64,000 bases of DNA from Arcobacteraceae bacterium (GTDB lineage Bacteria > Campylobacterota > Campylobacteria > Campylobacterales > Arcobacteraceae): NCBI GenBank assembly GCA_963662945.1, contig OY759974.1:736001-800000 (forward strand), given 5' to 3'. This document shows, piece after piece, positions 18,202-25,997 of this stretch (the stretch's first letter is position 1; each line of letters begins with the position of its first letter). Position numbers and translations under genes: made by a program. The notes beneath the pieces were generated by a model. The model was not told the DNA's origin. It saw nothing but the letters and a program-made list of their open reading frames with translations, and ran no database searches.

Positions 18202-18771
18202 TTACATTTTAGATTGGATAAACTCATCCATCTCAGAAACAATCTCTTCTATTGTTCTTTCACCATTAATCTTTACAAGCATATTTTTTGCTGTATAAAA
18301 GTTTTGTATTTCTGCTAATGGTTCTGTATATACTTTCATTCTGTTATTAAATACTTCATTATTATCATCTGCACCTCGTGAACGACCAAGAACTCTATCT
18401 CGTGCTACTTCTTCTGAAACTTCTACTTCAATAACATTCACCAATTTTACTTCATCTTCATGTACTAAATAGTTATCCAATGCTTCCATTTGTTCTAAAC
18501 TTCTTGGATAACCATCGATAACGATAACTGGTGTTGGTGCTTTTTTTATAGCATTTACAATTGTCTCTATTGCTACTTCAATTGGCACTAAATTTCCAGC
18601 ACTCATATATTTATCTAGTGTCTTTCCTAACTCACTTCCTGTTTTTACTTCTGCTCTAAACATATCTCCTGTTGAATAGTGTGTAATATTTTCGTGGTTT
18701 TTAGCAATAAGTTCTGCATCTGTAGTTTTTCCACTTCCAGGTGCACCAATTATCAAAAATAGCTTTTTCAT
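18202..18771 (-). CDS. adk: Adenylate kinase, short form (no LID insert)
   Basis: [21 protein letters not shown] and RSRGADDN motifs. Confidence 0.92.
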
Positions 18772-18897: not shown

Positions 18898-19539
18898 ATG
18901 AATTTAATGCTATTTGGTGCACCTGGTGCAGGAAAAGGTACACAAGCAAAATTTTTAATAGAAAAGTACGGTATCCCACAAATCTCAACAGGAGATATTT
19001 TAAGAGCTGCAATTGCAGATGAAACAGCTATGGGTATGGAAGCAAAAAGATTCATGGATGAAGGAAAATTAGTTCCAGATTCAACTATTATTGGTATTAT
19101 TAAAGATAGATTAGCTGAAGATGATTGTAAAAATGGATTTATCTTAGATGGTTTTCCAAGAACATTACCTCAAGCTGAAGCTTTAAGTGAACTTATGAAA
19201 GAGATGAATATCTCTTTAGATAAAGTTATCTCTTTAAATGTTCCAGATGAACTAATCGTTGGTAGAATCACAGGAAGAAGAGTTTGTTCTAAATGTGGTG
19301 CTTCATTCCATGTAGAATTTAATCCTTCAAAAGAAGAAAATGTATGTGACTACTGTGGTGGAGAACTTATCATAAGAAAAGATGATAATGCTGAAACTGT
19401 AAAAAGTAGACTTGGGGCTTACCATGAGCAAACAGCACCACTTATAGCATTTTACACAAATATGGGTGTGATGGTAGAACTTGATGGAACAAAAGACGTA
19501 TCAGAAGTAACAGCTGATATGATTGCAGCACTGAACTAA
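18898..19539 (+). CDS. adk: Adenylate kinase, long form with Cys4 zinc LID
   Basis: GAPGAGKGT, ISTGDILR, LDGFPR; LID CSKC...CDYC. Confidence 0.96.
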   Translation: MNLMLFGAPGAGKGTQAKFLIEKYGIPQISTGDILRAAIADETAMGMEAKRFMDEGKLVPDSTIIGIIKDRLAEDDCKNGFILDGFPRTLPQAEALSELMKEMNISLDKVISLNVPDELIVGRITGRRVCSKCGASFHVEFNPSKEENVCDYCGGELIIRKDDNAETVKSRLGAYHEQTAPLIAFYTNMGVMVELDGTKDVSEVTADMIAALN

Positions 19540-19652: not shown

Positions 19653-20861
19653 ATGAAAAAATTTATAACTTACAATGAATCATTAAATATATTAAATACC
19701 ATTTTATATGAAAACAAATCAACACAAAAACTTTTTATAAGTGACAGTTTAGGAAGAGTATTAGCCAAAGATATCGTTGCATCAGAAAACTCACCAGCAT
19801 TTGAAACTTCTGCTATGGATGGATATGCTCTCAAACATGAAGATTTACATCTAGGCAAACTAAAAATCACAGATAAAAATCCAGCTGGTACAATGATAAC
19901 ATCAAAAGTAGAAACAGGAACATGTATCAAAACATTTACAGGTTCACTTATGCCAAAAGGAAGTGATACACTTATACCTATAGAAAATGTTACTGTTGAG
20001 GGTGAATATATTATTATCAATGAAGAGGTTCCAAAAAACTTTGCAGTAAGAGCAGTTGGGGAAAACTACAAAAAAGATGAAGTTCTTATAAATGCAGGAA
20101 CTTTAATCGACTTTGCACAAATCGGTGTAATGGCTAGTTTAAATGTGGCTCAAGTAGAAGTATATACACAACCAACTATTGCTATAGCAAGTACAGGAAG
20201 TGAAATACTAGATGTGGGAGAAACACAAACAAATGACTCACAAATAAGAAGTTCAAATCATCTTACTTTAGAAGCAATAGCTAGAAAAAATGGTGCAGAT
20301 GTTTTGCAAATGGGTGTCGTAAAAGATGATAAAGAATCTATAACTAACCTTCTTAAAAATGCCCTTGAAAACGCTGATATAGTTGTAACTACTGGTGGGG
20401 TTAGTGTTGGAGATTATGATTTTGTAAAAGATGTTATTAAAGAAGATTTACAATGTGAAGTCCTCTTCCAAGGTGTAGATATCAAACCGGGGCAACATAT
20501 ACTTTTTGCTAAAAAAGATGAAAAGTTTATCATAGGACTTCCAGGTTTTGCATACTCTAGTACTGTAACATTCTTGCTTTATGTACTACCACTTATTTAT
20601 AAACTTAAAGGTGCAAATGAAAAACTCAATATAATAGAAGCTATCTGTGATGAAAACTTTCCAAAAAAAGGAAATAAAACTACTTTTACAGCTTGTAATA
20701 TAGAATTTAAAGATGGGAACTATCATATTAACTTTGATGGGAAAAAAAGTGGAAGTAGTGCTATTTTGACAAATATGCTTGGAAATTGTGGATTGTTATT
20801 TCAAGAGGCGGATAGTGGTGCTATATCTAAATGGGATAGAGTTAAGGTTATTTTACTTTAA
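19653..20861 (+). CDS. moeA: Molybdopterin molybdenumtransferase
   Basis: GRVLAKDI, SAMDGYA, TTGGVSVGDYD, IKPG and GLPG motifs. Confidence 0.95.
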   Translation: MKKFITYNESLNILNTILYENKSTQKLFISDSLGRVLAKDIVASENSPAFETSAMDGYALKHEDLHLGKLKITDKNPAGTMITSKVETGTCIKTFTGSLMPKGSDTLIPIENVTVEGEYIIINEEVPKNFAVRAVGENYKKDEVLINAGTLIDFAQIGVMASLNVAQVEVYTQPTIAIASTGSEILDVGETQTNDSQIRSSNHLTLEAIARKNGADVLQMGVVKDDKESITNLLKNALENADIVVTTGGVSVGDYDFVKDVIKEDLQCEVLFQGVDIKPGQHILFAKKDEKFIIGLPGFAYSSTVTFLLYVLPLIYKLKGANEKLNIIEAICDENFPKKGNKTTFTACNIEFKDGNYHINFDGKKSGSSAILTNMLGNCGLLFQEADSGAISKWDRVKVILL

Positions 20862-20886
20862 CTCTATACTAAATTTTCAAAAAATA

Positions 20887-22464
20887 TTACGAATTTCCTC
20901 GTATTATTTCCTCTTTTAAAGCCTGTTTATCGATCTTAGACTTATCTTTAGAATCCATAGGCATATTTGCTTTAAAAATAATCGTTGTAGGTATCATATA
21001 AGATGGAAGATGTTTTTTGAGTTCAAAGATTATCTCATTTTTAGCTAACTCTTTTGTTCCACTATAAACTAAAACTACCTCTTCCTCTATTTTCTCATTT
21101 TCTATCCCAAAAACTGCACACTCTTTTACCTCTGGAATATTTTCATATACAACAGTTTCAATTTCAAGTGGGCTTATTCTATAACCACTTGTTTTAATCA
21201 TATCATCATGTCTACATACAAAATAGATATAACCCTCTTCATCTTTATATACATAATCCCCAGTTGCAACAACAACCTCATCTGTTAAACCTTGTTGTAG
21301 GTCTATGACATTTTCTAGAATTTTAATAGATTTAAAACTATTGTCAGTATCTTCTTGTGAGTTCCAAAATCCACGATAAATTCCTGCACCTCTATGGATA
21401 AGCTGCCCTACTTCTCTTGGAGCACATTCATATCCTTTTTCATTGATAACATAAAGGTCTACATCTGGGATAGCTTTTCCTATAGAGTTTGGTCTTATTT
21501 TTATCTGAGAGGGATCAAGGTATGCTGAACGAAATGCTTCTGTATGTCCACTCATAGAGTAAAACTTCGTTTTAGGAAAATACTCTTGAATTTTTTCAAT
21601 CATTGTCATAGTTACATTTCCACCTGAAGAAGTAATAACTCTTACATGTTCAAGTTGTGAAGGACTTGGAAGTCTATGACTATCTTCATCAAACATTTGT
21701 GAGAAATGTACAGGCATAGCACCTATTACAGTTACTTTATCTTTTAAAATATGTGCAAAAAAATCACTTGGTGTAAAAAATGTATAGATAGCAAAAGTAG
21801 CTCGTGCATAAAATGAAGTAAATATTTGATTTAAACCATAATCAAAACTAAATGAGAGTAATCCACTTAATACATCATCCTCTTTTATCTCTAAATAGTT
21901 ATAGACAACTCTTGCACTATCTATAAGGTTTTTATGTGAGATAACAACCCCTTTTGGAAAACCACTTGAAGCAAAAGAATAAGTTATCGCTGCATTATCA
22001 TGCCCTTTGATACTACATTCATAACTACTACTATAACATTTGTAAATCTCTTTAAAAGAAACTATTTCCTCATCAGAACTTTCCACTGTGATGATTTTTC
22101 CACTATATGAAGTCTCTTTTAGGGTTTTTAACTTTTGCTCATCTGTTATCATACAGCTTATATCACAATCTTTGATGATATACTCAACTTGTTCTGCTTT
22201 TAATAACTTTGTAATAGGAACTAAAACATAATCAGTTGATAACACAGCTAAGATAGAGATAACTTTTTGGTTGTTTTTATTTGAGTAAATACCTATTCTT
22301 GCACCTTTTCCCAACTCTAAAGTTGTGATATAGTGAGCTAGTTTATTTACTTGTTCATACACTTCACTGTATGTAAGCTTCCCAACTTTATCAATAAGAG
22401 CTATTTTATCAGGTGTTTTTTGATTTGCGATTTCTACTAGGTTTCTTATACTATTGATAGACAT
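20887..22464 (-). CDS. Stand-alone adenylate-forming (AMP-binding) enzyme resembling the exosortase A-associated acyl-CoA ligase family
   Basis: SSGFPKGVVISHKNL, FSFDYGLNQ, TEAFRS, RPNSIGKAIP, TGD, DDMIKTSGYRISP and terminal KIDK. Confidence 0.88.
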   Translation of the reverse strand: MSINSIRNLVEIANQKTPDKIALIDKVGKLTYSEVYEQVNKLAHYITTLELGKGARIGIYSNKNNQKVISILAVLSTDYVLVPITKLLKAEQVEYIIKDCDISCMITDEQKLKTLKETSYSGKIITVESSDEEIVSFKEIYKCYSSSYECSIKGHDNAAITYSFASSGFPKGVVISHKNLIDSARVVYNYLEIKEDDVLSGLLSFSFDYGLNQIFTSFYARATFAIYTFFTPSDFFAHILKDKVTVIGAMPVHFSQMFDEDSHRLPSPSQLEHVRVITSSGGNVTMTMIEKIQEYFPKTKFYSMSGHTEAFRSAYLDPSQIKIRPNSIGKAIPDVDLYVINEKGYECAPREVGQLIHRGAGIYRGFWNSQEDTDNSFKSIKILENVIDLQQGLTDEVVVATGDYVYKDEEGYIYFVCRHDDMIKTSGYRISPLEIETVVYENIPEVKECAVFGIENEKIEEEVVLVYSGTKELAKNEIIFELKKHLPSYMIPTTIIFKANMPMDSKDKSKIDKQALKEEIIRGNS

Positions 22465-22474
22465 TCCCTACTCC

Positions 22475-23650
22475 TTATTTACTCATACCAAGTGTCCAGA
22501 TCTCATAATCTTTGTCCACTACAAGTGTTGGTGTTGTATTAAAATGTAAAAGCTTTTTATAAAAAAATGAGATAATATCTTCCATCTCTTCATTATCTAA
22601 AACTTTTGTAATTCCACCTGTTAATACTATAGAATTAAGTGTATCAAGTTTTATATTTAAGTATGATTTATGATGATGTGATATTTTATATAAAACTAAG
22701 AAAATAGAGAGTTGCATAAGAAGTTTTGTAGTCTTTGCATCTTTACTATCTAGCATGTTTTCTGTAGTATTAAGATGTGCTAAAAGTTCATATACAAACT
22801 CATTGTTTTTTGCAGTGTGTACTAAACTTTCTCTTGATTTATAAACACCAAGTTTTTTAAATACTAGTCTATCGTATTCATTCTCTGTAAGGATGTTATC
22901 ATCTACTAAATCTTTAGAGTAATGAATATCTGTCGTAGCCCCACCAATATCTATCACGATAAATGGATCAGCAACATCAAGTTTTGTATGAATCAATGGT
23001 AATGATTGATTTACGATATATGGTGTTGAGTATATCTGATTTGATGTAAGTTCATATAATCTTTTTATATCCTCTTTCCCCATAATATCTGCTTGGTAAA
23101 GGTTAGTTAAATACTCTTTTAAATCATCCTCTACCATTTTAAGTTTATTGTCTATGATATTTGGCAATACAACTAGATTTTCAATATTTTGTGTCAAAAA
23201 TTCAACTTGTGTTTGGCTTCCCACATAAACTATATTTGAGTAGTTTAATTTATCAAGATAGGTTATAAGTGTTTCATCAAATACATTTTGTACACTGTCA
23301 ATCCCACCTACAACAATAACCACATCAAGAGTATCAGTTGGTACTGCATAACTCTCAATTTGAGAATACACAACAGTTTCAATAATATTGATACCAGAAT
23401 TATACGCTATATTTGAAGCATATTTTAAACTAAATGATTCAGTAAGTCCAATAATAAGTGTACTTAATCCACCATTTGCAGAACTACAGATTTGTATCTC
23501 ATCTTTTTGATATTTTTGGATTGTCTCAGCACATTTAAATAGTAAATCATCATAAATATCTTTATCAAAATTTCTAAAATGATGAGAAATATTTCCATCA
23601 TCACATACTTTAAAATAAGTACTTCCTACATCTATTAACATTTTGCTCAT
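22475..23650 (-). CDS. glmL: Glutamate mutase reactivating factor (GlmL/MutL family, ASKHA ATPase fold)
   Basis: IDVGSTYFK, CSSANGGL, IDIGGATTDIH and LTGG motifs; adjacent to the mutase subunits. Confidence 0.88.
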   Translation of the reverse strand: MSKMLIDVGSTYFKVCDDGNISHHFRNFDKDIYDDLLFKCAETIQKYQKDEIQICSSANGGLSTLIIGLTESFSLKYASNIAYNSGINIIETVVYSQIESYAVPTDTLDVVIVVGGIDSVQNVFDETLITYLDKLNYSNIVYVGSQTQVEFLTQNIENLVVLPNIIDNKLKMVEDDLKEYLTNLYQADIMGKEDIKRLYELTSNQIYSTPYIVNQSLPLIHTKLDVADPFIVIDIGGATTDIHYSKDLVDDNILTENEYDRLVFKKLGVYKSRESLVHTAKNNEFVYELLAHLNTTENMLDSKDAKTTKLLMQLSIFLVLYKISHHHKSYLNIKLDTLNSIVLTGGITKVLDNEEMEDIISFFYKKLLHFNTTPTLVVDKDYEIWTLGMSK

Positions 23651-25011
23651 AACATAACTCCAATATCATGGATGATTTGATTTACCACTGAGTTTGGATT
23701 TTCCCCAAGGTCTATTTTTGATTGTTCATATTTAAAACTTTTTTCACTTAAAGGAAGTTTCCCTTTTTTATAAATACGAATATTGCTATCTTTATCTCTT
23801 ACGGTGATAAGTTCATTGTTGTTTATAATATGTGGAGAGAATGGAACATCTATGATACCATTTTTAATAGAGTTGAATACTTTTCTCCAAAGAGTATCTG
23901 CATGGTCATTAAAAATTGCTTCAAATATCTCATCCACTTCTCTTTCTAGATTTTCCTCTTCTTCCTCATCTACAAAAGCAGGAACTCCTCGAAGTGTTTT
24001 AAGAGTATATTGTACATTTGAAACAGCTTGGGCATTGTCCTCTTTTGTAGGAATACCAAAAGCTTCTGCACGTGTTTTTGTGATAATTTTATCTGCTTTT
24101 ACCATACCAGCTATCATAGCACCTATATCTATGAGGCTATCTGATTTAAACTTATCTCGTGGGAAAGCTCCCATCCATTGATGATATACTAGATTTATAG
24201 TTGCATCAGTTACACCTATTTTTGCTGCATATTCATTTGCTTTTTTTCGTAATACTTTTGACATAACTAAATCTTGATTTAAACTTCCACTTTGAGCAAA
24301 ACTTACAGAGAAAGATTTTACACCCTCTTCTAGTGAAAGTAGCATCTCACAGATTTGTATAACTATAGTAATACAAGGTGGCACTAAAGTTGCTGTAAGT
24401 GGTCCAAATGATTCTCTATTGATTGGTTCATTGAGTGTTGAGTATTTTGCACAAACTCTTTCCACATGTTTCCAATATAAAAAAGCTTTATCTTGTGGAA
24501 AGTTTTTTGAATATGGGAGGATATAGGTTATAGGTCCACCCTCTATCTCAAAAACACCACTTGCTATTGCCATCTCTACAAGTAGTCTTGCATCTGGTGT
24601 TCCATGTCGTAAACTCACAGGTGTATTAAAATGTGTAACCATTTTTCGTGTAGTTCTATATCCATGGTTTATAAGTGGATAACCGTTTAAAAGGTCAGTT
24701 TCTGTCTCTTCAGAAAGTCTCAACATCTTTGCAGCACTTCCATAGTCATTAAGTCTTGTATGAGAATCAATTGTCATAGGTAAGATATCTACTACAGGTG
24801 CAAATTGTTCATAGAGTGCATACATTTTTTCAAAAGTTGGAAATCCACCTCTTGGTTGTACTAAAGTCTTATCTCTATTGTTTTTAAACTTATGAGATAT
24901 AAAAAGCTCTTTATTTGCATTTTTTACAAACTCTTCAATCTCAGAAAAATCAAAATTATCAACATATTGGTTTGATACGATTATTTCTCTATCTCTTTGT
25001 AGTAAACTCAT
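23647..25011 (-). CDS. glmE: Glutamate (methylaspartate) mutase E subunit
   Basis: QPRGG, TIDSHTR, LLNGYP, RHGTPDARLL, EGGPITY, INRESFGPL, HQWMGAFP and KTRAEAFGIPT motifs. Confidence 0.94.
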   Translation of the reverse strand: MSLLQRDREIIVSNQYVDNFDFSEIEEFVKNANKELFISHKFKNNRDKTLVQPRGGFPTFEKMYALYEQFAPVVDILPMTIDSHTRLNDYGSAAKMLRLSEETETDLLNGYPLINHGYRTTRKMVTHFNTPVSLRHGTPDARLLVEMAIASGVFEIEGGPITYILPYSKNFPQDKAFLYWKHVERVCAKYSTLNEPINRESFGPLTATLVPPCITIVIQICEMLLSLEEGVKSFSVSFAQSGSLNQDLVMSKVLRKKANEYAAKIGVTDATINLVYHQWMGAFPRDKFKSDSLIDIGAMIAGMVKADKIITKTRAEAFGIPTKEDNAQAVSNVQYTLKTLRGVPAFVDEEEEENLEREVDEIFEAIFNDHADTLWRKVFNSIKNGIIDVPFSPHIINNNELITVRDKDSNIRIYKKGKLPLSEKSFKYEQSKIDLGENPNSVVNQIIHDIGVML

Positions 25012-25415
25012 AGTAAGTATCCTTGTACATGGTTATCAAGAATATTTAAACCTTCCATCAAATCAATTTGATGAAAAACCAAATCAAAACCATACTCTTT
25101 GAATTTTGGTACTATTAAGCTCTCATCACCCTCACCAACACTCAAGTTTCCACCAATAACAAATACTACATCTTTAAGTTTATACTTATCTTTTAAAATC
25201 ATCAAATCTCTACACCACCCTTCGGCTTCACCGTTAAGTGAAGAGATAAGTAAAACCTTCGCATCTGTTTCTATGACTGCATCAATAAACTCTTCTAAAT
25301 AGGTATTAACCCCAAGATTAAATACCTCATATCCCCTACTTTGTAAAGAGATATCAATAAGTCTATTTGCTACAACATGGATATCATTTCCAACTACACC
25401 TGTTACAACTTTCAC
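25008..25415 (-). CDS. glmS: Glutamate (methylaspartate) mutase S subunit, cobalamin-binding
   Basis: GVVGNDIHVVAN (DxH), SSLNG and GGNL motifs; GTG start with AGGA RBS. The symbol refers to the mutase S subunit, not glucosamine synthase. Confidence 0.93.
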   Translation of the reverse strand: MKVVTGVVGNDIHVVANRLIDISLQSRGYEVFNLGVNTYLEEFIDAVIETDAKVLLISSLNGEAEGWCRDLMILKDKYKLKDVVFVIGGNLSVGEGDESLIVPKFKEYGFDLVFHQIDLMEGLNILDNHVQGYLL

Positions 25416-25442
25416 ATCTTATCCTAGTAAAAAAATTGTGTG

Positions 25443-25483
25443 ATTATATCTAAATAGTGATTAAAAGTATTATTTGATATAAT
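25443..25483. promoter_or_regulatory. Back-to-back sigma70 -10 elements for the glm operon and the RraA gene
   Basis: TATAAT on minus at 25448-25443; extended TGaTATAAT on plus at 25475-25483. Confidence 0.6.
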
Positions 25484-25514
25484 CCCATTACTAACATACA
25501 AAATAGGAAAATGA

Positions 25515-25997
25515 ATGAAATCATATACAGCAGATATCTGTGATAAACATCCACATGAAGTACAAGTACTAGACCCAATATTACAATCTTTTGGTGGCGT
25601 TTCAATGTGCCATGGAGAGATTGTAACAGTAAAACTTTTTGAAGATAATAAGGCTTTAGTAGAACTCTTAAGAGATAATAAGGGGCATGGGAAAGTATGT
25701 GTTGTTGATGTTGAAGGTGATTATTGTGCTGTAGTTGGTGAAACACTTATGGGATATGCTTATCATAACGGTTGGGAAGGTATCATCATCAATGGTTATG
25801 TAAGAGACACACACCAAACTACACAAATACCTGTAGGACTTTGGGCTTTGGGAACTTATCCATTTAAAAGCCAAAAGAAACAAGTAGCAGAACACAATAT
25901 TGAACTAAACTTTGGAAATGTTACTTTTAGAGTTGGTGAGTTTTTATATGCTGATAGAGATGGAGTTGTTGTAACAAAAGAGAATATAGTTTTATAG
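25515..25997 (+). CDS. rraA: RraA family / putative 4-hydroxy-4-methyl-2-oxoglutarate aldolase
   Basis: TADICD, TVKLFEDN, GWEGIIINGYVRD and YADRDGVVV motifs. Confidence 0.9.
   Translation: MKSYTADICDKHPHEVQVLDPILQSFGGVSMCHGEIVTVKLFEDNKALVELLRDNKGHGKVCVVDVEGDYCAVVGETLMGYAYHNGWEGIIINGYVRDTHQTTQIPVGLWALGTYPFKSQKKQVAEHNIELNFGNVTFRVGEFLYADRDGVVVTKENIVL

Follow-up and report, generated by a model that had tools for sequence, protein, structure and literature searches.

A glutamate mutase operon with an adenylate-forming ligase and a divergent RraA-like gene, and without methylaspartase, in an Arcobacteraceae genome and other marine bacteria

To our knowledge, glutamate mutase has been known in two settings: in fermentation and the methylaspartate cycle, always together with methylaspartase (methylaspartate ammonia-lyase), and in the antibiotic clusters of actinomycetes. 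The former is represented by the glmS-L-E/mal pathway of Clostridium, also present in E. coli O157:H7; the gene order of the clostridial mutase is glmS-glmL-glmE. In the vicenistatin cluster, the mutase VinH/VinI feeds a stand-alone adenylating enzyme (VinN) accompanied by the acyl carrier protein (ACP) VinL and the pyridoxal phosphate (PLP)-dependent decarboxylase VinO, with no methylaspartase, while in nikkomycin biosynthesis the mutase NikU/V leads to 2-oxobutyrate. The locus described here lies in a 64,000-nucleotide stretch of the genome of an Arcobacteraceae bacterium (assembly GCA_963662945.1, contig OY759974.1, positions 736,001 to 800,000; hereafter, the window), at window positions 20887 to 25997. 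It comprises a glmS-glmE-glmL-ligase operon and a divergent RraA-like gene, and appears to represent a third setting for glutamate mutase: a compact, self-contained module, apparently mobile between Campylobacterota and marine Gammaproteobacteria, with neither methylaspartase nor natural-product machinery. With the fermentative pathway it would share the chemistry of the mutase, a GlmL-type accessory gene and a conserved active site; unlike that pathway, it lacks methylaspartase, its GlmE is divergent, its gene order is S-E-L rather than S-L-E, and its partners are the ligase and the RraA-like gene. Unlike the vicenistatin cluster, it has no ACP, PLP decarboxylase, polyketide synthase (PKS) or other biosynthetic gene nearby, lies among the housekeeping genes of Gram-negative marine bacteria, and carries instead the RraA-like gene, joined in some hosts by a gene for an aminotransferase. 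A full-text literature search, out of reach of which were supplementary files and several subscription papers, found no published description of this module.

The four genes of the operon lie on the minus strand. The first, glmS (25008..25415; GTG start codon), codes for the small cobalamin-binding subunit of glutamate mutase (135 amino acids [aa], NF002612, PF02310). It is followed by glmE (23647..25011), a gene with a single copy in the genome, which codes for the catalytic subunit (454 aa, PF06368), and by a glmL-like gene of the MutL family (22475..23650; 391 aa, PF13941), the short and divergent product of which is a putative ATP-dependent chaperone or reactivase of the mutase. The last gene (20887..22464) codes for a stand-alone adenylate-forming ligase of the ANL superfamily (525 aa, PF00501 plus PF13193), similar to the adenylation domains of nonribosomal peptide synthetases (NRPSs). 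Direct reading of the sequence showed an ATGA overlap at both the glmS/glmE and glmE/glmL junctions. The glmL/ligase junction reads TAAGGAGTAGGGAATG, with a 10-nt gap and a GGAG ribosome-binding site; the spacer from the glmL stop to the ligase start is GGAGTAGGGA. The four genes form one translationally coupled operon; the original prediction, made from the letters of the window, had described the same gene order and junctions. The RraA-like gene (25515..25997, plus strand) is divergent from glmS and codes for a protein of 160 aa (PF03737), a putative metal-dependent β-keto-acid decarboxylase or class II pyruvate aldolase. The 99 bp between the two genes (25416..25514) contain a TATAAT-like hexamer and the AGGA that precedes the glmS GTG codon, and presumably serve as a shared control region.

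The same prediction had pointed to conserved active-site residues in both mutase subunits, and alignment with solved structures agreed with this. When GlmE was aligned with the Clostridium cochlearium enzyme (6h9e_B; HMMER, E 2.6e-78), the equivalents of R66 (in QPR), R100 (HTR), R149 (RHG), E171 (EGG), Y181, and K326 and E330 (both in KTRAE) were all found to be conserved; we take R66, R100 and R149 to form the arginine claw, and the set as a whole to contact substrate and cofactor. GlmS has a B12-binding domain, its gene adjoins glmE, and in an alignment with MutS (1be1_A; E 4e-21) its D11-x-H13 matched D14-x-H16, although the Gly of the DxHxxG motif is replaced by Ala. Its score against NF002612 was 154.3 bits (cut-off 110), and that against TIGR01501 was 94.6 bits, under the cut-off of 135.8. 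GlmS and GlmE thus very probably constitute a catalytically intact coenzyme B12-dependent glutamate mutase that converts L-glutamate into (2S,3S)-3-methylaspartate. GlmL matched PF13941 with 96 bits (cut-off 27), and scored 77.3 bits against NF040745 (cut-off 475) and 51.5 against TIGR01319 (cut-off 204); its 391 residues fall short of the 450–459 positions of the profiles, and a search of the PDB provided no relative. This protein is probably the accessory ATPase of the mutase.

GlmE scored 382 bits against PF06368 (Met_asp_mut_E; cut-off 26.6) and 370.8 against the equivalog model TIGR01503, slightly below its cut-off of 390.1. Module-type GlmE proteins reached about 380–400 bits on PF06368, versus 700 for the canonical GlmE of another genome, and, judged by their sequences, they form a distinct divergent clade. 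This divergence, together with the scores of GlmE below the TIGR01503 cut-off and of GlmL far beneath its own, could be explained if the mutase homologue acted on another substrate (e.g. a substituted glutamate), or mainly in reverse, the module then being unrelated to free 3-methylaspartate. However, all the substrate- and cofactor-contacting residues of the solved enzyme are kept in GlmE, and we consider such an explanation highly improbable.

The absence of methylaspartase was not limited to the window. A whole-genome search for it, which the original prediction had recommended, provided no match to TIGR01502 in the complete genome from which the window was taken (a single contig of 2,497,315 bp, 99.99% complete). 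At E ≤ 1e-10, none was found either in any of 301 Campylobacterota genomes (at least 90% complete), and four further module-bearing genomes (Neptuniibacter, Thalassotalea, Granulosicoccus and Sulfurimonas CS5) were equally negative; the enzyme of E. coli O157:H7 Sakai, used as a positive control, scored 542 bits. These results bear on a suggestion made along with the original prediction, namely that the ligase might be a mesaconate-type coenzyme A (CoA) ligase in a variant of the methylaspartate cycle. In such a catabolic pathway the ligase would produce 3-methylaspartyl-CoA or mesaconyl-CoA, which would be converted into β-methylmalyl- or citramalyl-CoA and then cleaved. On chemical reasoning only, activation of C4 of 3-methylaspartate followed by elimination of ammonia would give mesaconyl-C1-CoA, and the genome does contain a weak CitE/RipC-like lyase gene (G000:C1:874489-875307; L050 1489-2307), with 68.9 bits on HpcH_HpaI. 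This gene, though, lies 75 kb beyond the end of the window, preceded by two small open reading frames (ORFs; about 143 aa), one for a cytochrome c and the other without a match, with no hydratase gene flanking it. It was the sole CitE-like gene found and is unlinked to the module, in a search confined to the HpcH/HpaI family; no locus had a linked hydratase or lyase gene. In addition, the invariant Asp in motif A4 of the ligase (see below) is unsuited to mesaconate as a substrate. The lack of methylaspartase, the location of the CitE-like gene among cytochrome genes, and the invariance of both the A4 Asp and a loop Arg in the ligase make a methylaspartate-cycle variant very improbable, and it was rejected, HpcH/HpaI being the family covered among its later enzymes.

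The distribution of the genes indicated that the ligase and the mutase belong together. Among the 301 Campylobacterota genomes, the ligase (orthologue threshold E ≤ 1e-60) and GlmE were detected in exactly the same 20, drawn from 12 genera in five families. In every case both genes lay on one contig and on the same strand, about 1.25 kb apart. This coupling is not due to chance. Scanning of contigs with the ligase alignment provided 80 loci, 66 of them with at least 3.6 kb of sequence upstream of the ligase; glmS, glmE and glmL were present upstream in 62 of these 66, and GlmL was detected in 75 of the 80. As for synteny, proposed as a further check, the ligase gene adjoined glmE in all 20 positive Campylobacterota genomes. 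The link was less tight in the window's own genus, where, of 24 genomes, 21 had GlmE and 10 the ligase. The ligase depends on the mutase, while the mutase is independent of the ligase.

The RraA-like gene followed a similar pattern. It was present in all 20 GlmE-positive Campylobacterota genomes and in seven of the 281 GlmE-negative ones, and in 19 of the 20 it lay on the strand opposite to glmE, no more than 2.5 kb away. It was also found in 53 of the 80 loci, divergent in every case and at most 700 nt from glmS in 46. The RraA-like gene is therefore a fifth member of the module.

The module is not specific to Arcobacteraceae. Marine Gammaproteobacteria accounted for 26 of the 80 loci, the hosts including Colwellia, Thalassotalea, Litorilituus, Neptuniibacter caesariensis MED92, Reinekea, Halieaceae, Cellvibrionales and many Granulosicoccaceae. 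All five genes were present in 22 of these 26 loci, and their products were 57–60% (ligase) and about 70% (GlmE) identical to those of the window. In a FastTree phylogeny the gammaproteobacterial ligases formed one group nested among those of Campylobacterota (SH-like support 89, with midpoint rooting only). With three phylum labels, three label changes were counted on the ligase tree, three on the GlmE tree and two on the RraA-like tree. Since label changes were few on all three trees, the genes of the module appear to have moved together, and the module itself appears to be horizontally mobile across phyla. In the order of Thalassotalea, GlmE was above the cut-off in two of 161 genomes, too sparse a distribution for use in co-occurrence analysis.

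Clustering of all the ORFs of the 80 loci identified a single further family that recurred beside the module, an AspC/TyrB-type aminotransferase (395–423 aa; Aminotran_1_2, 275 bits; NF006719, 576 bits). Its gene adjoined the RraA-like gene in 11 gammaproteobacterial loci, the outer flanks of which were all different. Between orders, the module-linked aminotransferases shared 75–78% identity; further paralogues, with 39–69% identity, were found in Thalassotalea, Neptuniibacter and Alteromonadaceae Bs31. In Reinekea the orthologue and the RraA-like gene are separated by about 5 kb; Granulosicoccus has no orthologue. The possibility of an unlinked AspC-type orthologue in the window's genome was discarded: tblastn detected none, and a profile built from the 11 module copies found one distant class-I aminotransferase (E 4e-7).

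The RraA-like protein scored 132.7 bits on PF03737 and 165.8 on NF006875 (cut-off 136), and its best sequence matches were proteins named RraA, such as that of P. aeruginosa (3c8o, 135.9 bits). It cannot act here as a regulator of RNase E, since no RNase E/G (PF10150) was found in the 99.99%-complete genome, while six control genomes did give matches. Mazurkewich et al. are said to have described, in 2014, a motif in which Gly-(Asp/Glu) lies 21–22 residues upstream of the catalytic Arg and the metal-binding Asp. The RraA-like protein contains G75, E76, R97 and D98, and these positions were kept in all 52 module-linked copies analysed (position 76 being Glu in 47 and Asp in five). They correspond to Gly101, Asp102, Arg123 and Asp124 of the P. 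putida HMG/CHA aldolase; in that enzyme Arg123 stabilizes the pyruvate enolate, Asp124 binds the metal, and oxaloacetate is also decarboxylated (PMC5065237). The same source considers most homologues of RraA to be class II pyruvate aldolases. The RraA-like protein thus belongs to the same fold family as the HMG/CHA aldolases and has their catalytic and metal-binding G-(D/E)...R-D residues but, unlike these, its gene has no aromatic-degradation context.

A mutase, an aspartate-type aminotransferase and an enzyme of the oxaloacetate-decarboxylase type represent the steps of a methylaspartate route to 2-oxobutyrate, and the RraA-like protein is therefore proposed as a dedicated 3-methyloxaloacetate decarboxylase. 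Such a route has been postulated for E. coli W and Crookes. According to two reports, methylaspartate is converted in vivo into 2-ketobutyrate by transamination to methyloxaloacetate followed by loss of CO2, and it rescues an E. coli 2-ketobutyrate auxotroph (bioRxiv 10.1101/2025.08.26.672309; eLife PMC7476758). Promiscuous activity of AspC and spontaneous decarboxylation are held to account for the later steps. No dedicated genes are known for these later steps in E. coli, whereas the module links the RraA-like gene and, in Gammaproteobacteria, an AspC-type gene, to the mutase. In the branch proposed, an aspartate-type aminotransferase (encoded in the module in Gammaproteobacteria, and presumably a housekeeping enzyme in the window's genome) would convert 3-methylaspartate into 3-methyloxaloacetate, and the RraA-like protein, as a Mg2+-dependent enzyme of the oxaloacetate-decarboxylase/aldolase type, would decarboxylate this to 2-oxobutyrate, possibly trapping the enolate. 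The net result would be the conversion of 2-oxoglutarate into 2-oxobutyrate and CO2, feeding isoleucine or propionyl-CoA metabolism. We regard this branch as possible, at somewhat less than an even chance.

The ligase contains both an AMP-binding (PF00501, 208.6 bits) and an AMP-binding_C domain (PF13193, 30.9 bits), and the motifs expected of such enzymes (a P-loop-like SSGFPKG, TE, GD and RxD..K..G.R). Its top NCBIfam match was TIGR03098, "exosortase A system-associated acyl-CoA ligase" (466.7 bits, under the cut-off of 592.35), and it reached 209 bits against the amino-acid-adenylation model TIGR01733. Its top single-domain matches in the PDB were NRPS adenylation domains (100–142 bits), VinN (114) and malonyl-CoA synthetase (113). 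The 120 closest database proteins carry only the names "AMP-binding protein" or acyl-CoA synthetase, and a search of representative proteins matched only giant multi-domain NRPSs. True TIGR03098 members were 33–35% identical to the ligase (Aureimonas plasmid pAU20a, S. meliloti pSymB and a Sphingomonas XrtA locus); a related gene is present on a Bacillus plasmid. All four of these TIGR03098-type genes belong to ligase/PLP-decarboxylase/ACP triads, three of them within polysaccharide loci. These triads parallel VinN/VinO/VinL (PMC11284099). No paper on the uncharacterised TIGR03098 family was found in the literature search. The XrtA-associated TIGR03098/TIGR03099 triad is thus the source of the best-scoring named family for the ligase, with which it shares the A4 Asp and an identical TEAFRS-x-YLDP loop (M-x-G-x-T-E-A-F-R-S-x-Y-L-D-P in full). 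It differs in that the ligase falls under the family cut-off, has neither a decarboxylase nor an ACP partner, is not in a polysaccharide locus, and has an altered A10 motif.

The substrate pocket of the ligase was mapped through an alignment with LgrA and through motifs, not by structure, using what we take to be the A4/A5 motif numbering. The specificity positions, with GrsA numbering in brackets, are D208 (235), Y209 (236), N212 (239), M304 (322), R312 (330) and S313 (331). The first five were identical in all 75 ligase orthologues compared, and S313 in 74. D208 occupies the A4 amino-binding position, and R312 lies in the β13–β14 loop. VinN binds 3-methylaspartate as a β-amino acid through D230 (equivalent to 235), the bulky F231 (236), S299 (301) and K330/R331 (330/331) (PMC11253843). 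In this motif-based comparison, the ligase appears to match VinN where the latter contacts 3-methylaspartate, with an Asp, a bulky aromatic side chain and a basic residue in the loop, and by analogy the amino-binding Asp, the bulky aromatic residue and the loop Arg of the ligase would fit an acidic amino acid. With both the A4 Asp and the β13–β14 Arg invariant, the ligase has the appearance of an enzyme that activates an amino acid, not that of a mesaconate-CoA ligase. Because of the genetic coupling to the mutase, 3-methylaspartate is the most likely candidate substrate, a proposal for which we see the case as evenly balanced. TIGR03098 members have Ala and Ser at the positions of Tyr209 and Asn212, respectively, replacements that may reflect the extra methyl group. 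In this second branch the ligase would adenylate 3-methylaspartate, the side-chain carboxyl being the probable site; as in VinN, Asp208 would bind the amino group, and the α-carboxylate would be held by Arg312. Adenylation would pull the unfavourable equilibrium of the mutase forward, and the acyl group would be passed to an acceptor encoded outside the module, such as CoA, a housekeeping ACP or an amine.

The ligase could also represent the whole purpose of the module. In this explanation, the mutase merely supplies a building block to the ligase, which loads it onto a carrier, such as the housekeeping ACP, for use in a surface polymer, a lipid or a small metabolite, the RraA-like gene being a bystander. 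The translational coupling of ligase and mutase, the perfect co-occurrence of ligase and GlmE across the 301 genomes, and the fact that the nearest relatives of the ligase act with an ACP in polysaccharide loci would all fit. However, carrier, decarboxylase or transferase genes travelled with the module in none of 97 loci examined (17 + 80), five congeners have lost the ligase yet keep the mutase and an RraA-like gene, and the RraA-like gene is linked in two phyla with an invariant catalytic motif. A pathway consisting of building-block supply only is thus considered unlikely. The products of the module could also come together in a nikkomycin-like small-metabolite pathway, in which the mutase and the aminotransferase would give 3-methyloxaloacetate, and the RraA-like protein would add the enolate of 2-oxobutyrate to an aldehyde in a decarboxylative aldol reaction; transamination would then give a branched hydroxy-amino acid, and this compound, instead of 3-methylaspartate, would be activated by the ligase. 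A single gammaproteobacterial module does hold a mutase, an aminotransferase, an aldolase-like enzyme and the ligase, and HMG/CHA-type aldolases use one enolate intermediate for both aldol cleavage and oxaloacetate decarboxylation (PMC5065237). The invariant Arg312, common to the TIGR03098 ligases, points instead to a second carboxylate on the substrate of the ligase; further, no aldehyde-supplying gene is linked, and the idea is purely inferential. We consider it distinctly improbable.

Taken together, these observations lead us to propose, tentatively, a mobile module that uses 3-methylaspartate in the absence of methylaspartase: the mutase would produce it from L-glutamate, and it would then enter either of the two branches set out above, towards 2-oxobutyrate via the RraA-like protein, or towards an acceptor via the ligase. 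The original prediction, that the operon makes 3-methylaspartate and activates it for transfer to an acceptor, is supported in part, by the intact-looking mutase and the apparently amino-acid-activating ligase, but the unit proved larger than foreseen, its RraA-like and aminotransferase genes pointing to a 2-oxobutyrate branch that had not been envisaged, and the ligase is dispensable in five congeners. The broadest form of the proposal is that the module is the first genetically encoded glutamate mutase pathway independent of methylaspartase, with an RraA-family 3-methyloxaloacetate decarboxylase or decarboxylative aldolase, and a carrier-less ligase of VinN/TIGR03098 type diverting 3-methylaspartate into another product; in this form we think it rather unlikely.

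Several observations weigh against the two-branch model. As regards the ligase, the window protein has the A10 lysine (K510), but just 30 of the 75 orthologues share it (Gln in 24, Glu in seven, Arg in six); the neighbouring K513 is conserved in 70. The ligase resembles VinN only weakly, with 114 bits for the full-length protein and E 1.5e-3 for the pocket fragment; in the PDB search with this fragment VinN ranked sixth and seventh, slightly beneath five entries for 4-chlorobenzoate-CoA ligase. Since TIGR03098 is itself uncharacterised, an acidic amino acid as substrate is proposed by analogy. Intact glmS-glmE-glmL genes with no ligase gene after them were found in the five congeners mentioned (G010, G011, G015, G020 and G022). 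No carrier, condensation or transferase gene is linked to the ligase. The searches for stand-alone ACPs, PLP decarboxylases and B12 genes suggested by the original prediction did find two carrier proteins and CobS in the genome. One carrier is a stand-alone PP-binding protein taken as the presumed housekeeping AcpP; the other, the ACP of a Dar-type cluster (see below), was rejected as the acceptor, since this cluster, found in five of 41 relatives, varies independently of the ligase. The best genome match to the TIGR03099 PLP decarboxylase was 229 bits, under the cut-off of 478, and the window contained no PLP decarboxylase or ACP partner. The genes downstream of the ligase were also discarded as partners: they vary by lineage and are housekeeping or unrelated (small c-type cytochromes, yidD-yidC-jag-mnmE, an AcrB pump and, in one genus, an α/β hydrolase).

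The branch to 2-oxobutyrate faces objections too. No AspC-type gene is found in the module in Campylobacterota, and in 10 of the 62 loci with glmS-glmE-glmL no RraA-like gene was found within the available flank. 3-Methyloxaloacetate decarboxylates spontaneously (bioRxiv 10.1101/2025.08.26.672309). With IlvA encoded in the genome (TIGR01127, 516 bits), isoleucine does not call for a second route to 2-oxobutyrate, and the notion that the route is required for want of IlvA was ruled out. As for the cofactor, neither a CobA/BtuR-type nor a PduO/EutT-type ATP:cob(I)alamin adenosyltransferase was found in the window's genome; none of the 25 genomes of the genus, among them the window's own, had a CobA-type enzyme, and the PduO/EutT-type search of the genus sample provided two marginal matches only, within frames some 685 aa long. 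This leaves two options: import of ready-made coenzyme B12, or an adenosyltransferase that was not recognised.

A methylaspartate route to 2-oxobutyrate has been postulated since the 1960s, and if the two-branch model is correct the genes for it would have been identified. The widespread RraA-like proteins would gain a physiological function as enzymes in bacteria that lack RNase E. There would also be a tractable entry point to the uncharacterised family of TIGR03098 ligases, and one more B12-dependent trait in marine bacteria that may rely on external cobamides. The module is present in named isolates (Neptuniibacter caesariensis MED92, Thalassotalea sp. ND16A, Reinekea marinisedimentorum DSM 15388 and Sulfurimonas sp. 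CS5), which makes these hypotheses directly testable.

The module was not uninterrupted in all hosts. Three of the four exceptions among the 66 loci with sufficient flank had AAA_15/AAA_21 defence-like genes inserted beside the ligase. Genome G035 is similar: an AAA_21/RloB pair comes after glmS-glmE there, and a separate contig carries the ligase. Overall, AAA_21 or AAA_15 genes (once with RloB) were observed between glmL and the ligase or after glmE, with the operon split in some lineages, and some other genomes had a zeta-toxin-like AAA_33 gene plus a small ORF between glmE and glmL. These insertions of selfish or defence type are located at L054 2995-3773, L056 5037-5810, L128 5118-6992, L130 5314-6985, L103 3335-3901 and L020 53-2023. 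In one genus (L038 7616-8308; L039 8494-9195), a gene for an α/β hydrolase of 230–233 aa, with a weak MenH/BioH-like match, lies between the RraA-like gene and glmS. One locus (L101) is on a contig binned as Rhodothermales although its ligase nests in the Granulosicoccaceae clade; misbinning or a very recent transfer are both possible.

The second carrier protein of the window's genome is part of a cluster of the dialkylresorcinol/flexirubin type, composed of DarB, DarG, DarH (a BtrH-like acyltransferase), the ACP and a ketosynthase (G000:C1:998860-1004386; L031). Its distribution is patchy, with five of the 41 relatives having it and one copy broken by stop codons, and its presence in an Arcobacteraceae genome was unexpected.

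A Pfam scan of the 61 ORFs of the window detected no ammonia-lyase, carrier protein, NRPS or PKS, and the description of the surroundings as an otherwise housekeeping region, made in the original prediction together with these absences, held good: the remaining genes include rpoB, ribosomal protein genes, tuf, cell-wall genes, two adenylate kinase genes, moeA and citrate synthase, as well as sensor kinases, lpxK, nadE and succinate dehydrogenase/fumarate reductase. Between the ligase gene and the convergent moeA lies a terminator-like hairpin (20836..20867), with a 13-pair stem followed by a T-rich tail; it was the sole terminator-like site detected within 20600-25700. Two ORFs that overlap genes of the module are probably spurious: one of 98 codons on the minus strand (25450-25746), which overlaps the RraA-like gene and has no family match, and one on the plus strand (23783-24181), opposite glmE. 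The two adenylate kinase paralogues lie back to back, at 18202-18771 (minus strand) and 18898-19539 (plus strand); one is a protein of 189 aa without the lid zinc-ribbon domain, and the other, of 213 aa, has an ADK_lid domain.

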